Virus record (IMG/VR): IMGVR_UViG_3300027542_000007
Span: 54,860-74,859 of that record
Source of the DNA: an uncultured virus (IMG/VR IMGVR_UViG_3300027542_000007)
Taxonomy: Duplodnaviria > Heunggongvirae > Uroviricota > Caudoviricetes
Length of the DNA: 20,000 nucleotides
Direction: 5' to 3' (one strand)
Shown here piece after piece: positions 11,379 to 16,608 of this stretch. The notes beneath the pieces were generated by a model, which saw nothing but the letters and a program-made list of their open reading frames with translations, had not been told where the DNA came from and did not search any database. Each line of letters opens with the position of its first letter. Position 1 is the first letter of the stretch. Position numbers and translations under genes: made by a program.

Positions 11379-11404
11379 TTATATTTTTCTTTATCATAGG
11401 CTGA

Positions 11405-11419
11405 AACATTTATAATAAT
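11405..11419 (+). promoter_or_regulatory. late-type promoter AACA-N7-TAAT
   Basis: AACA-TTTATAA-TAAT between the terminator and RBS AGGAGG. Confidence 0.55.
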
Positions 11420-11439
11420 ACACATATAGGAGGTTAGCA

Positions 11440-12702
11440 ATGGATACAGATAGAATTATTATAGAAAATGGAGAAATGAAATATGACTTTGGTTACTTGT
11501 TAAAGGGTTTATCTAGCATATATGATAGAGATGCAGCCATAAGATCCAAAGCTAGAGAAACTATTATAGATGAATTAAATAAGTTTTTTACGGATATCAG
11601 ATGTTCAGATGTAAAAATATCTGACAATACCGATAATGACTTCTTTGGCGTTCAAATTATACCATATTTTAGAGACTCATCTGCTATGGCTTCACAAATG
11701 ATGAATCCTGACATGTTTAATATCAAGAGTTCAGAAATTAAATTTGACCACTATGCATTAGATATAGATAGTAAAGTATTTGATGAAGTGTATGAATTCT
11801 CTCCGTTAGTTCTCGCCGCATTGATTATACATGATATAAATGCAATTAATAATCCGCAAGTTGTAAAAGACTTTGTTGCTGCTATTGACTATGTATCCGT
11901 AAAGTCAGGAGTTTTACTTAGACAAAATGATATACAACTTGATCAATACCTGATGCAATTTGTAATGACAGAGTATGTAAGAAAAGTAACATCTTCATTT
12001 GAATTATGTAACGAAAATTTAGTGCTTGCTGATGATTTCATTAGAAATTACGGTCTCACAGAAGCCTATGACCGTGGAATAGAGTGTGTCAAAAAAGCTA
12101 AAAACAATTTAAAGGATCAGATATGTTGTCCTACACTTATCATTAACTGGTATTTATCAGTATACAGATATTCGGGAAATCTGTTTGACCAAAAGACAGA
12201 AATTTCGGATGTTATTGAAGATTCTATTAGGCTCTGTGGTTCTAAATTACTGAGAAAGCTTATGGTAGCTATAGTTGACTATAATAATACTTCATATGAT
12301 AGAAATATTAGAGATTATAGAACAGCATTAACTGAATCTTCTAAAAAGAAGTCTTCATTGTTTACCCAAATTAAAAAGTCTGGAATGAAATCTATAGAAG
12401 ACGATGTATATGAATATCGTATAAGAATAAAGAATATTCAAACGGAATATGAAGCATTAAATCTTATGCGTGAGCTTAATGGAAGAATGGTTATAATAAC
12501 GGATTATTTGGATAATGAAGAGGAGTTATCAGAGCATGAAAAAGAAAGACTTTATAAATTGTATGATAAATATGATAATCTCAGAGAAGAACTTTCTAAG
12601 CAGCCTATATATAATAGAAAGATGTATGGATTATTTGTAGATTACAATGCTTTAAAGCAGATGTCAGATGCTAATATGACTACCATGAACACTTATTATT
12701 AA
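11440..12702 (+). CDS. putative virion protein with a degenerate zincin-like motif (420 aa)
   Basis: Late promoter; LAALIIHDINA and LVLADDFIRNYG recall HExxH...ExxAD peptidase folds; an LTES motif precedes a helical C-terminal domain. Confidence 0.5.
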   Translation: MDTDRIIIENGEMKYDFGYLLKGLSSIYDRDAAIRSKARETIIDELNKFFTDIRCSDVKISDNTDNDFFGVQIIPYFRDSSAMASQMMNPDMFNIKSSEIKFDHYALDIDSKVFDEVYEFSPLVLAALIIHDINAINNPQVVKDFVAAIDYVSVKSGVLLRQNDIQLDQYLMQFVMTEYVRKVTSSFELCNENLVLADDFIRNYGLTEAYDRGIECVKKAKNNLKDQICCPTLIINWYLSVYRYSGNLFDQKTEISDVIEDSIRLCGSKLLRKLMVAIVDYNNTSYDRNIRDYRTALTESSKKKSSLFTQIKKSGMKSIEDDVYEYRIRIKNIQTEYEALNLMRELNGRMVIITDYLDNEEELSEHEKERLYKLYDKYDNLREELSKQPIYNRKMYGLFVDYNALKQMSDANMTTMNTYY

Positions 12703-12716
12703 AACATATTTATAAT
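12703..12716 (+). promoter_or_regulatory. late-type promoter AACA-N6-TAAT with no downstream protein gene
   Basis: AACA-TATTTA-TAAT immediately after stop 12702; predicted +1 at A12714 using AR9 spacing. Confidence 0.7.
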
Positions 12717-12775
12717 AGCTGCTGGTTAATCGGGGTCGGATGCAAAAAGGTTGGCTGGTGGCTATTAAATGGCAT
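12710..12775 (-). CDS. possible 21-aa peptide MPFNSHQPTFLHPTPINQQLL, antisense to the candidate sRNA
   Basis: Minus strand AGGAGG-N8-ATG, open for 21 codons to TAA; lies downstream of the minus-strand holin-like operon. Confidence 0.3.
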   Translation of the reverse strand: MPFNSHQPTFLHPTPINQQLL

Positions 12776-12833
12776 TTTTGGTGCCTCCTGGGTGGAATTA
12801 TAGAGGGCCGAAGCGACCGGCCCTCTGTATTTT
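12714..12833 (+). ncRNA. candidate ~120-nt structured small RNA
   Basis: Flanked by a promoter and terminator; uninterrupted 18-bp stem 12714-12731/12749-12766 (11 Watson-Crick + 7 G-U pairs); second hairpin 12771-12785; CCUCCU at 12784-12789; GC-richer than the flanks. Confidence 0.65.
12799..12833 (+). terminator. intrinsic terminator
   Basis: TATAGAGGGCCG-AAGCGAC-CGGCCCTCTGTA followed by TTTT. Confidence 0.8.
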
Positions 12834-12893
12834 ACCTACTTCGTATTTTGTTTTTGCATGATAGTTCTCTAACAAAAGGTTCCGGTAGCACAA

Positions 12894-13343
12894 CTAGGTG
12901 CTACCGGGATCTTTTTCACTTTTATCTTTCGTGGTTTCGGCTGAGTCAATAGCATCTGGAAGTCGAGCATTTTCTTTCTCTGCCATTGACGCGACATCCT
13001 TAATTATTGGATCTGCACTCTTAGCGAATATCTTTAATAGACTAGTCATAAACTTTCCATTTAATGCGAATTTGATAATGACATAAGCCCACATTCCTAA
13101 CAATATGCATACCACTGCGTATATACTAAATGGAATATTTATTTTTAAATAATCCGCAGCCGCGCACATTAAAAATGTCGAGAATATCGTGGAAGCCACG
13201 ATTTTCGGGATGTTCAATGCACTATTTTTCTTTGATGAGGTCATGGTTTCTCTTATCAGTGATCCCAATAAACACATCAAGAATGTAACCGCAAATCTAT
13301 TGTATAAGAATTCCAATAGTATATCGAGAGTTATATTGTCCAT
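12894..13343 (-). CDS. holin-like membrane protein (3 predicted TM helices, charged C-tail)
   Basis: Hydrophobic segments FAVTFLMCLLGSLI, IVASTIFSTFLMCAAA and IYAVVCILLGMWAYVII; hydrophilic tail; lysis-type neighbourhood. Confidence 0.55.
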   Translation of the reverse strand: MDNITLDILLEFLYNRFAVTFLMCLLGSLIRETMTSSKKNSALNIPKIVASTIFSTFLMCAAADYLKINIPFSIYAVVCILLGMWAYVIIKFALNGKFMTSLLKIFAKSADPIIKDVASMAEKENARLPDAIDSAETTKDKSEKDPGST

Positions 13344-13381
13344 TATACCATCGATACCTCCTTATACATGTATTTAGCAAA

Positions 13382-14440
13382 TTATGATTTAGCACAATTT
13401 GGGTTATCATCTTTAGTTATTGTATCGCTGTCGTCTGTATCGACGCTTTCATTTTCATGCTCGACTATCATATTGTATAGGCTACAAAAATAGAAAATGA
13501 GTCCACACACTGCGATTACTAATGCGACTCCAAATAGGTATAGTATTCTAATAGTCTCAGAATATTCATCTCGTATTACTTCTATGATCTCATCATCATC
13601 TGTTAGATAAGAAGCATTATTTATGATTTGATCATAAAGATTGAATTCCTGAACTATTATTATTTTATTATTATCTTGCTTTACTCCATGAATTATATCT
13701 TCTTGTCCAAATATATCTCCATTACTGGTTATATAGTATGGAATATACACTTGATAGTTTCTAAGCCCATCTAAGCCTTCATTGAGATAAACCTTTTTAA
13801 CTTCATCATATGTAAATTCCTTTATCATTATATGAGAATCCTGCCCATTAATGAGATTATACGGTTCAAATGCAATAATTCCATTAGTACGATTTAATAA
13901 CTTATCGACGCTAACTTGTGCTAATGAACTGTTAAATGAATTCTCTATCTCATGTTCCCAAGATCTGTTAGTAATATGAGTATTACTGTTTTGGGATATA
14001 GTTTCGGCTCTTCGGTAATTAAAATCTTCCAAAACACCATTTGATGTCATAGCAAGCATACTATTTTTGGAATTATTAACACCTTTGAAATCCTTACCTT
14101 TTATATTATTATTAATTATTTCATGAAGAACTGGATTGTGAATATCATTACTCATGTCTTCTTGAATGTCTTTGAGCTGCTCTTTTGGCAATGACAATAA
14201 ATCTCTTTTGACATCTTCGCCTGTTTGATCCACCTCTTCTTTAGCTTCGTCCATAAGAATATCAAGATAAGTATATATAGAATTATACATACTATTCTTT
14301 AAATATCTTATGTTGTTATCTGAAGACTTTTTGAGATCATTTATAACGTTCGTATAAAGGATAACAGACGAAGAGAAGGCAACAATAATAAATATCATTA
14401 GTCTTATTAGAACTAATGACTTCTTATTTTTTTTATTCAC
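13382..14440 (-). CDS. membrane protein with two TM helices flanking a ~270-aa extracytoplasmic domain
   Basis: GTG start with RBS AAAGGAGG; basic N-terminus followed by TM1 (LMIFIIVAFSSSVILY), TM2 (ILYLFGVALVIAVCGLIFYFCSLY) and a short acidic tail. Confidence 0.75.
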   Translation of the reverse strand: MNKKNKKSLVLIRLMIFIIVAFSSSVILYTNVINDLKKSSDNNIRYLKNSMYNSIYTYLDILMDEAKEEVDQTGEDVKRDLLSLPKEQLKDIQEDMSNDIHNPVLHEIINNNIKGKDFKGVNNSKNSMLAMTSNGVLEDFNYRRAETISQNSNTHITNRSWEHEIENSFNSSLAQVSVDKLLNRTNGIIAFEPYNLINGQDSHIMIKEFTYDEVKKVYLNEGLDGLRNYQVYIPYYITSNGDIFGQEDIIHGVKQDNNKIIIVQEFNLYDQIINNASYLTDDDEIIEVIRDEYSETIRILYLFGVALVIAVCGLIFYFCSLYNMIVEHENESVDTDDSDTITKDDNPNCAKS

Positions 14441-14557: not shown

Positions 14558-14581
14558 TTTGTAGAAAGGAGGAGCACCAAT

Positions 14582-14986
14582 ATGACGGGAGATGTTATGC
14601 AGCAGCTCTTAAACGAAGTGATACGTAATGTGGATATGGTTGTTTTGATCTGTCTCTTGGCTTTAGGGTTTTGTATAAAACACTTTAAGTTCTTAGCAAA
14701 GGTACAGAACGATCTCATTCCGCCGTTTTTGCTTTTCGTTGCTATTGTAATTGAGTTCATCCAGCATGGATTCTCTATTACTAGTATTGTGATTGCCATA
14801 GTCACTACTGCTATAGCCATCGGTCTACATACCCAGGGGAAGAATATATTTACGGTTACCATAATTCCTAAAATTATTGAATTGCTAAAGGGAATTAGTA
14901 GTGGCATTGAAGATTCTCTTCTCGGGGAGGACGATGAATACGAATGCGACGTAGGTGAAGAAGAAGCAGGAGAAGATAGCGATTAG
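14582..14986 (+). CDS. phage holin (Phage_holin_5_2-like)
   Basis: VVLICLLALGFCIKH...NDLIPPFLLFVAIV...FSITSIVIAIVTTAIAIGLHTQGK pattern typical of clostridial phage holins; RBS AAAGGAGG. Confidence 0.7.
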   Translation: MTGDVMQQLLNEVIRNVDMVVLICLLALGFCIKHFKFLAKVQNDLIPPFLLFVAIVIEFIQHGFSITSIVIAIVTTAIAIGLHTQGKNIFTVTIIPKIIELLKGISSGIEDSLLGEDDEYECDVGEEEAGEDSD

Positions 14987-15056: not shown

Positions 15057-15650
15057 ATGAATAGATACGGAGAGATAAAAAGAGAAGAGAAGGGAACGAA
15101 TATGTCTATTTGGAACGTGTTAAAGATTCAAAGAGAAAATGAATATAAAGAATACATCAACAATCACATTCGCAATGTGCACGTAGCATGGGACAAATTA
15201 AAAGAAACCCCGGGATTCAAAGAGCTACTAATAGATGAATTGCATTTGACCGAGCATGAATATGAAAATATGATTCTTATTTTAGACCATGACATTGATC
15301 AACACGATAGATCAAAATGGGATAGGGAAGAATTTGATGCATATAGAAAAGAATATTATTCCATTACACCAGAAGAAAAAGAAGGCAATAAAAATGATAT
15401 AGAAAGAGCATGGAGACATCACTATACTCACAATCATCATCATTGGAATTGGTATCATGAAAATGGTTGTGAAAGCAAAATGCCTATGAAAAATGTAATT
15501 CATATGGTTGTAGATTGGGAAGCGATGAGCTATAATCCGAATAATAGCAGCACAAAGGAATGGTATAATAAGAACAAGAAAGATATATACCTAGGGGAAA
15601 AACAAAGAAATTTTGCTGAAAAGCTAATGGGTTTAATGAATAACAAATAA
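15057..15650 (+). CDS. HD-superfamily DUF5662-like protein (~197 aa)
   Basis: HIRNV, HDRSK, AWRHHYTHNHHHW and HMVVDWEAMS motifs. Start placed at ATG 15057 (RBS AAGGGAG); ATG 15102 is an alternative. Confidence 0.75.
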   Translation: MNRYGEIKREEKGTNMSIWNVLKIQRENEYKEYINNHIRNVHVAWDKLKETPGFKELLIDELHLTEHEYENMILILDHDIDQHDRSKWDREEFDAYRKEYYSITPEEKEGNKNDIERAWRHHYTHNHHHWNWYHENGCESKMPMKNVIHMVVDWEAMSYNPNNSSTKEWYNKNKKDIYLGEKQRNFAEKLMGLMNNK

Positions 15651-16588: not shown

Positions 16589-16608
16589 TTATATATTATA
16601 TACATGAA
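16589..16608 (+). promoter_or_regulatory. early-type phage promoter box TTATATATTATATACATGAA
   Basis: 19/20 identical to 2333-2352. Confidence 0.7.

Follow-up and report, generated by a model that had tools for sequence, protein, structure and literature searches.

A candidate late small RNA of an AR9-like jumbo phage with two proposed pairing sites in the mRNA of a GyrB-like topoisomerase subunit

The locus and its phage

The DNA analyzed here (hereafter the window) is a 20,000-nt stretch of an uncultured tailed phage, corresponding to bases 54860-74859 of a 74.9-kb IMG/VR record (IMGVR_UViG_3300027542_000007) whose completeness is estimated at about 30%. It contains a 191-nt gap (12703-12893) on which two genes converge from both sides: a late plus-strand gene of 420 aa (11440-12702), which has no known family and adjoins the gene of the major head protein, and a minus-strand gene of 149 aa (12894-13343). 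The gap was originally predicted to encode an RNA of about 120 nt, made late in infection and acting either as an antisense regulator that blocks a ribosome-binding site or as a structural or assembly RNA. Our analysis points to a late small RNA (sRNA) that may repress the gene of a GyrB-type topoisomerase subunit of the same phage by pairing with its mRNA at two sites.

Two longer contigs, of 129 kb (G001) and 231 kb (L018), were found to represent the same phage, and G001 differs from the window at only one of the 20,000 positions. The sequencing runs that contain the stretch are labeled as mouse gut, and none of those listed is registered as RNA. The phage has a G+C content of 34% and strong AGGAGG ribosome-binding sites.

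Late promoter and predicted transcription start

The stop codon (TAA) of the 420-aa gene is followed directly by the AACA of a predicted late promoter on the plus strand, AACATATTTATA (12703-12714), which has the form AACA-N6-TA. The similarity extends two bases further, giving AACATATTTATAAT (12703-12716), and this is the perfect copy of AACA-N6-TAAT that the original prediction had placed here. The strict pattern is statistically weak: it has 5 matches in the window against 2.35 expected, a number reached in 12 of 200 shuffled sequences. The broader AACA-N6-TA word is enriched upstream of genes. Of its 61 copies in the 74.9-kb record, 16 touch the non-coding part (7.8% of the sequence), and 14 of these are located 29-98 nt 5′ of a same-strand gene, that of the head protein included. 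Two of the non-coding copies, the one at 12703 among them, are followed by no gene within 100 nt. In G001, 29 of 113 copies touch non-coding DNA (8.1% of the contig). AACA-N6-TA is clearly a promoter word, located close to genes genome-wide.

The late promoter consensus mapped for phage AR9 reads AACA-(6N)-TA/G, its final base being the transcription start site (PMC5312081). Since this consensus places the start at the last base, transcription is predicted to begin at A12714, which is the first base of helix 1 described below; the same +1 had been proposed earlier and is upheld by the match to the AR9 consensus.

Structure of the predicted RNA

Positions in the sRNA are numbered from A12714 (nt 1). 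The first predicted element is a plus-strand stem-loop, helix 1 (12714-12766), in which the arms AAUAGCUGCUGGUUAAUC (12714-12731) and GGUUGGCUGGUGGCUAUU (12749-12766) pair without a break over 18 bp (11 Watson-Crick and 7 G-U pairs) around a 17-nt loop (12732-12748); the minimum free energy and centroid structures are the same. It is followed by the 6-bp hairpin 2, GGCAUUUUUGGUGCC (plus strand, 12771-12785; GGCAUU-UUU-GGUGCC). An anti-start-site segment begins within this hairpin and is composed of CAU (12773-12775), eight nucleotides and CCUCCU (12784-12789). Further downstream is hairpin T1 (plus strand, 12799-12833), a structure of 12 pairs with the tail UGUAUUUU, whose hairpin and T-run occupy 12799-12829. 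A U-rich spacer (plus strand, 12834-12873) separates T1 from a bidirectional terminator (12874-12915) with 18 pairs on the plus strand and 10 on the minus strand, each followed by a T-run. The latter terminates the minus-strand 149-aa gene and constitutes the second terminator of the plus strand. Both this terminator and the block GTATTTTGTTTTTG of the spacer are kept in L042, the closest relative compared.

The folding potential of the region was compared with that of shuffled sequences on both strands. For 12714-12833 the plus strand gave -50.6 kcal/mol (z -4.33, none of 200 shuffles as good) and the minus strand -28.2 kcal/mol (z -2.17, 4 of 200 as good). For the 5′ stem alone (12714-12766) the values were -19.5 kcal/mol (z -4.26, 0 of 200) on the plus strand and -2.2 kcal/mol (z 0.07, 95 of 200) on the minus strand. 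The minus-strand signal over the longer segment derives from the terminator alone, and the difference in z-score between the strands (-4.26 versus 0.07) therefore identifies helix 1 as specific to the plus-strand RNA. The architecture described in the original prediction (the stem with its seven G-U pairs, the small hairpin, CCUCCU, CAU-N8-CCUCCU and a terminator-like hairpin) is thus present in full, as is the restriction of the helix to plus-strand RNA, and the comparison with shuffled controls went in its favor.

The RNA had also been described as belonging to no recognizable family. A search of 12000-13500 against Rfam yielded 7 matches at E ≤10, all far under the gathering score and none of them to 6S or pRNA, which agrees with that description; the best match inside the element was to GcvB (19.9, with a gathering score of 42). 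ARAGORN found no genes in the stretch. A putative pseudoknot between loop 1 and hairpin 2 (CAAAAA/UUUUUG) loses its C-G pair in L042, the one sequence with which the window was compared in this respect.

Natural variation is concentrated at T1. In a variant found in sequencing runs X15 and X20 the segment 12559-12806 is unchanged, while 9 substitutions and 2 indels turn T1 into another hairpin, with AAAUUU as its tail and hence a weaker U-tail. The exchange resembles a cassette-like swap of a terminator stem. L042 likewise has another hairpin at the T1 position, with a poor U-tract. Because of these weak U-tails, T1 may be a structural element and the RNA may end at the second terminator; the predicted length is accordingly either about 120 nt (T1) or about 205 nt (second terminator), and the former figure is uncertain. 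Run X20, which is labeled metatranscriptomic and possibly represents DNA, contains a 181-nt contig that covers 12722-12891 and starts with an 11-letter adapter remnant, while 12384-12721 is uncovered. This contig fits an RNA that starts near 12714 and reads through T1; as one contig from one study, and of a kind of data that reveals neither RNA ends nor levels, it is not counted as evidence.

Conservation among relatives

Loci encoding relatives of the 420-aa protein were drawn from IMG/VR, metagenomes and GTDB genomes. In four closer loci (L042, L020, L019 and L043), whose 420-aa proteins share 46-91% identity over the matched part, an AACA-N6-TA word overlaps or abuts the stop codon.

L042, which can be aligned with the window at 83-85%, carries the promoter, the structured RNA and the hairpin architecture. 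The arms of its helix 1 differ by 10 substitutions and nevertheless keep 17 of the 18 pairs, with six pairs changed on one side, one changed on both sides (A-U to G-C) and one broken. Its loop has one deletion, and the 13-nt core of the seed (hairpin 2 together with CCUCCU), GGCAUUUUUGGUG, is identical to that of the window at 13 of 13 positions. Between GGUG and CCUCCU the RNA of L042 has two additional bases, UG. Conservation of the stem in relatives, on which the original prediction had been made to depend, is thus found in L042: the seed is kept and the helix arms vary with their pairing preserved, a pattern observed in two sequences only, those of the window and L042.

The other loci have diverged further. 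L020 (3713-3900; 47% identity of the 420-aa protein) encodes a 188-nt RNA that cannot be aligned with that of the window and folds strongly (-72.9 kcal/mol, z -7.1), with a G-U-rich 15-bp 5′ stem near the predicted start. L043 likewise has an unalignable and strongly folded RNA (z -8.3) with a stem near the predicted start, and in both RNAs a C/U-rich word stands ahead of the final hairpin. Of L019 only the promoter can be seen, as the contig stops there.

More distant relatives, with 25-37% identity of the 420-aa protein, as a rule have a terminator directly after the stop codon and lack the element. A covariance model built on the two alignable copies (R1) found no match in any of the records of five distant relatives, one of them complete, and a single copy in the 129-kb contig. 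In the complete distant genome G002, the gap after the 420-aa homologue contains no R1 match, and no specific complement of a start region was found there. The element is not shared by the clade at large. This gap (L004 3698-3990; G002 27713-28012) has an early-type promoter word that recurs at no fewer than 15 places, on both strands. Scanning IMG/VR for one conserved word of the sRNA returned the same phage and 7 chance matches in unrelated context; a second conserved word returned the same phage only.

Complementarity to the GyrB-like mRNA

Potential targets were sought by a short-word antisense search of the RNA against the 129-kb contig G001, which represents about half of the genome. Full-length RNAduplex predictions with the 120-nt RNA gave unrealistic long-range duplexes, and windowed duplexes and cofolding were used instead. 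The two best antisense matches are two sites within one and the same plus-strand gene. It encodes a 788-aa GyrB-type topoisomerase subunit, and GyrB, Toprim and HATPase domains are present in all 120 homologues listed. The start codon of the open reading frame (ORF) is confirmed by the closest homologues, whose N-termini read MPKEL… or MSKEL….

Site 1 involves the seed, i.e. hairpin 2 and CCUCCU (plus strand, 12771-12789), which is predicted to pair with the start region of the GyrB-like gene. Nucleotides 58-71 of the sRNA (12771-12784) are the exact complement of G001 14196-14209 over 14 contiguous bp, comprising the last base of the Shine-Dalgarno (SD) sequence, the whole 8-nt spacer, the AUG and the next two coding bases. 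A single bulged C then separates this duplex from four further pairs, formed by UCCU with AGGA of the SD sequence. The gain on cofolding is -23.1 kcal/mol, which ranks first among 140 start regions (z -4.66; mean -5.7, sd 3.7, next best -18.8). The RNA of L042, when applied to the same 140 start regions, also has the GyrB-like gene in first place (-22.7 kcal/mol, next -17.3), whereas the control RNAs of the unrelated lineages L020 and L043 give top z-scores of about -2.9. The start region of the holin gene (14560-14584), considered as another target, shares the 12 nt GAGGAGCACCAA with the GyrB-like start, yet it ranks only 77th of 140 and was rejected.

Site 2 involves the loop of helix 1. Its segment UCGGAUGCAAAAA (plus strand, 12736-12748; sRNA nt 23-35), which comprises 13 of the 17 loop bases and ends at the 3′ edge of the loop, is perfectly complementary to G001 15280-15292 (codons 359-363), 1.08 kb inside the GyrB-like ORF. 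Among 20,000 shuffles of the loop, only 2 give a complement of 13 nt in the GyrB-like mRNA, and the real loop has no match longer than 10 nt elsewhere on either strand of the 129 kb, apart from its own locus. Site 2 is a stronger statistic than site 1 alone. For the segment 12827-12925 no notable complement was found elsewhere in the 129 kb.

The most economical reading of the two sites together would be a specific relationship between the sRNA and the GyrB-like mRNA, which is encoded about 69 kb away. The antisense regulator proposed in the original prediction thereby acquires, in its trans-acting version, a concrete candidate target, and the suggested comparison with the initiation regions of the phage ranked that target first.

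Early-type promoter word of the proposed target gene

Upstream of the GyrB-like gene we found the word TATATAAT-AATAT-TGAA, which ends 21 bases 5′ of the start codon (G001 14170). All seven copies of the pattern TATAT[AT]AT-N3-6-TGAA in G001 touch non-coding DNA and several precede genes, for instance the RNA polymerase (RNAP) beta-like ORF. The word before the GyrB-like gene fits the early promoter consensus of AR9, AAATATATATTAT-(6N)-G (PMC5312081), and no late promoter word was found within 100 nt upstream of the gene. According to the same source, the early genes of AR9 include a gyrase subunit (PMC5312081). On the basis of these promoter words, the proposed pair consists of an RNA with a late promoter and an mRNA with an early promoter and a short leader. 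The window itself contains two copies of the early-type word (at about 2336-2352 and at 16592-16608), located 5′ of the genes that begin at 2384 and 16666.

Proposed mechanism and alternative explanations

That the element specifies a genuine late non-coding RNA is, in our judgment, probable. For its proposed function, the repression of the GyrB-like gene by a late, trans-acting sRNA of an AR9-like jumbo phage through two-site pairing, we estimate a probability of about 50%. The synthesis of the RNA, its lateness, the pairing in the cell and the repressive outcome are all inferred. In the proposed sequence of events, the phage's own late RNA polymerase would start at A12714, from the AACA-N6-TA word abutting the stop codon of the 420-aa gene, and the RNA, about 120 or about 205 nt long, would end at T1 or at the bidirectional terminator, respectively. 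Its first 53 nt would form the 18-bp G-U-rich helix, which may protect the 5′ end and would display the conserved 17-nt loop. The segment GGCAUUUUUGGUGCCUCCU would then pair with the SD sequence, spacer, AUG and first coding bases of the GyrB-like mRNA, and the loop with the second site 1.08 kb inside the ORF. A start region covered in this way would exclude 30S subunits, and the duplex might also invite cleavage, so that no more of an early replication enzyme would be made after the onset of late transcription.

Several observations weigh against such a function. The transcript, its 5′ end and its timing are predictions from sequence alone. Site 1, taken alone, would not be rare for a segment that simply resembles a start site: among 6105 pairs of real start regions, 7 have at least 14 nt in common, which corresponds to a chance of about 1 in 10 against 111 start regions, and after shuffling of the RNA body an antisense match of at least 14 nt arises somewhere in the 129 kb in 38 of 500 cases. 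Other start regions pair reasonably well with the seed too (-18.8 and -16.7 kcal/mol), and it may thus lack specificity. At site 2, a helix of 13 bp formed inside a loop of 17 nt would be under topological strain, the L042 loop, being one base shorter, would bulge the 13-bp duplex on an unchanged target, and the residues encoded there (IFASED) are the same in GyrB homologues of 85% and 76% identity. The RNAs of L020, L019 and L043 mirror a start of the type MKK…, and none of the 120 listed GyrB homologues starts with MKK; their target, if any, should for this reason be another gene. A better target may also lie in the half of the genome beyond the 129-kb contig. Finally, the sRNA and target loci have been seen together in one phage only, and the search of IMG/VR for relatives of the GyrB-like gene returned the same contig only.

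The pairing of the seed with other start regions is what would be expected of a general late non-coding RNA, in which CAU, the U-rich stretch and CCUCCU mimic the 3′ end of 16S rRNA together with the anticodon side of a start site. Such an RNA would damp many mRNAs (early phage or host) or titrate an RNA-binding factor, and the fit to the GyrB-like gene would be merely the best of many. Since most start regions of the phage read AGGAGG, an A-rich spacer and AUG, several of them pair with the seed (-18.8, -16.7 and -14.1 kcal/mol), and the RNAs of four lineages share a C/U-rich anti-SD word before the last hairpin, while differing otherwise. What this leaves unexplained is the 13-nt complement of the loop in the GyrB-like ORF (2 of 20,000 shuffles), as well as the exact match of the 8-nt spacer and the two bases after the AUG to one gene. 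We regard a general role as unlikely.

Slightly less likely still is that there is no separate RNA gene, the element being a structured 3′ untranslated region (UTR) or terminator of the 420-aa gene that serves mRNA stabilization or termination, with the promoter word and the complementarities arising by chance. The 420-aa mRNA would indeed carry the element as its 3′ UTR, since there is no terminator between the ORF and the element. In distant relatives a terminator is all that occupies this position, R1 finding nothing in five of five records, and site 1 taken alone has a p of about 0.1 under a null model of start-site-like sequences. Against this stands the retention of the promoter word over the stop codon in four lineages, in which the RNA downstream has diverged beyond alignment. 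A 3′ UTR, moreover, needs no helix that starts exactly at the predicted +1, and the statistic of the second site (2 of 20,000) speaks against chance.

The anti-start-site segment could also be the image of a real start site on the opposite strand. A 21-codon minus-strand frame (12710-12775) lies behind AGGAGG-N8-ATG, the mirror image of the seed, and in that case the RNA of the plus strand would be paired with it as a cis-encoded antisense RNA, in the manner of a type I toxin-antitoxin system. The SD sequence and its spacing from the ATG are canonical in the window, L042 and L020, and a weaker version is present in L043. The frame itself is not conserved: it encodes 21 aa in the window, 36 aa in L042, 13 aa in L020 and 24 aa in L043, the peptides are mutually unlike, and relative to the window a 1-nt indel shifts that of L042 into another frame after residue 2. 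Because these frames are unlike and shifted across lineages, the start-site image appears to be a property of the plus-strand RNA and the frame was judged not to be a gene. The seven G-U pairs of helix 1 likewise imply that it is the RNA of the plus strand that is under selection. The frame has no late promoter word directed at it, the minus-strand unit ends at its own terminator (12907-12882), and the window peptide is not hydrophobic; a conserved small hydrophobic ORF opposite the RNA, the mark of type I systems, was not found in the window, L042, L020 or L043. A minus-strand gene is thus very improbable. On the plus strand, the frames of 70 aa and 30 aa are reduced to 4 aa or absent in L042, and the absence of a credible plus-strand gene, part of the original prediction, is borne out.

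Least probable of all is a structural or assembly RNA of the virion (similar to the pRNA of phi29) or a decoy against host defense, such as a CRISPR-repeat mimic. The position next to head genes, the late promoter and the fast sequence turnover between lineages would suit it. On the other hand, no Rfam family matches at the gathering score, the 7 weak matches include neither pRNA nor 6S, and distant relatives with the same head module lack the element. The structural or assembly role considered in the original prediction found no support.

Repression of the GyrB-like gene may be one instance of a broader phenomenon. AR9-like jumbo phages could possess a class of fast-evolving late sRNAs made by the non-virion RNA polymerase (nvRNAP), each mirroring the start region of a particular early gene, silencing it at the onset of late transcription and being re-targeted between lineages. 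We offer this extension tentatively and hold it to be doubtful.

Neighboring genes and other features

The 420-aa protein has 232 relatives; no Pfam domain was found among the 120 listed. Nearly all of the listed relatives are 385-441 aa long, and their C-terminus, YGLFVDYNAL, is invariant. The protein is probably a conserved head-module protein of a group of jumbo phages. Neither a megablast search with 11400-13400 nor a tblastn search with the 420-aa protein gave a match among 50,697 phage records.

The sole named relatives of the major head protein are those of AR9/PBS1 (Bacillus) and Staphylococcus jumbo phages, with 26-30% identity. A 741-aa RNAP beta-like ORF was identified by its match to PF00562 (44.5 bits, cut-off 23.4), this being the one subunit searched for.

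Homopolymer tracts of 10-11 G or C residues are located just 5′ of three genes (G001 at about 98700, 113730 and 126240) and could be prone to slippage. Outside the window, the upstream sequences at about 28400-28900 of G001 resemble tRNA (GGTTCGAATCC), and the region is probably a tRNA cluster.

Comparison with known systems

Control of one mRNA by one sRNA at two sites is known from OxyS and fhlA, where the ribosome-binding site and a site in the coding region are both contacted by kissing through hairpin loops. The two-site geometry proposed here is similar. OxyS differs in being a host stress sRNA that depends on Hfq, and its pairings are of 7-9 bp, compared with 14+4 and 13 bp here, where the second site lies 1 kb downstream. 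More than one complementary segment is also used by the phage RNA c4. In phage T4 the protein RegA occludes the start regions of early mRNAs and so brings about their late translational shut-off; the task proposed here is the same, the effector being a protein in T4 and an RNA in the present case.

Among phage RNAs, c4 of P1/P7 and sar of P22 are likewise short and pair with the ribosome-binding region on an mRNA of the phage, whose translation they block; in c4 the complementary segments are exposed in loops (PMC12197685). Both of these, however, belong to temperate phages, where their role in immunity is to control the antirepressor. The gene of sar lies opposite that of its target, and c4 is excised from the operon that also contains its target (PMC12197685). 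The sRNA described here, by contrast, would be encoded about 69 kb from its target in a jumbo phage of virulent type, would have a late promoter of its own and would play a temporal role. A virulent-phage RNA said to repress the translation of a gene of its own phage is PAK_P4as15 of Pseudomonas phage PAK_P4, which differs in being a cis-encoded antisense RNA of about 550 nt directed against the endolysin gene (PMC12197685).

The late transcription units of AR9 have the same promoter word and start base (PMC5312081), and the phage studied here has an AR9-like head protein and an RNAP beta-like gene. For AR9, internal and antisense late promoters are reported, whereas the accessible text describes no trans-acting late RNA with a defined target and contains neither "small RNA" nor "noncoding" (PMC5312081). 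The word "jumbo" does not occur in the accessible text of a 2025 review of phage sRNAs (PMC12197685). A differential RNA sequencing (dRNA-seq) study of phiKZ left its one predicted sRNA unconfirmed, and a 2026 review of jumbo phages says on this subject only that non-coding RNAs are expressed by phiKZ. In the main texts of the literature searched we found no description of an RNA of this kind.

Biological significance

Very little is known about regulatory RNAs of virulent and jumbo phages, and the present finding is a candidate late RNA with a named target, two pairing sites and a temporal logic. It could serve as a natural template for the programmable silencing of jumbo-phage genes, which approaches directed at the DNA can hardly reach. 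If the proposed repression is real, the early-to-late switch in phages that encode their own RNA polymerases would have a post-transcriptional arm made of RNA. If, in addition, the reading as a class of lineage-specific RNAs proved true, these phages would possess an RNA counterpart of T4 RegA, with shut-off programmed by re-targeted antisense RNAs.

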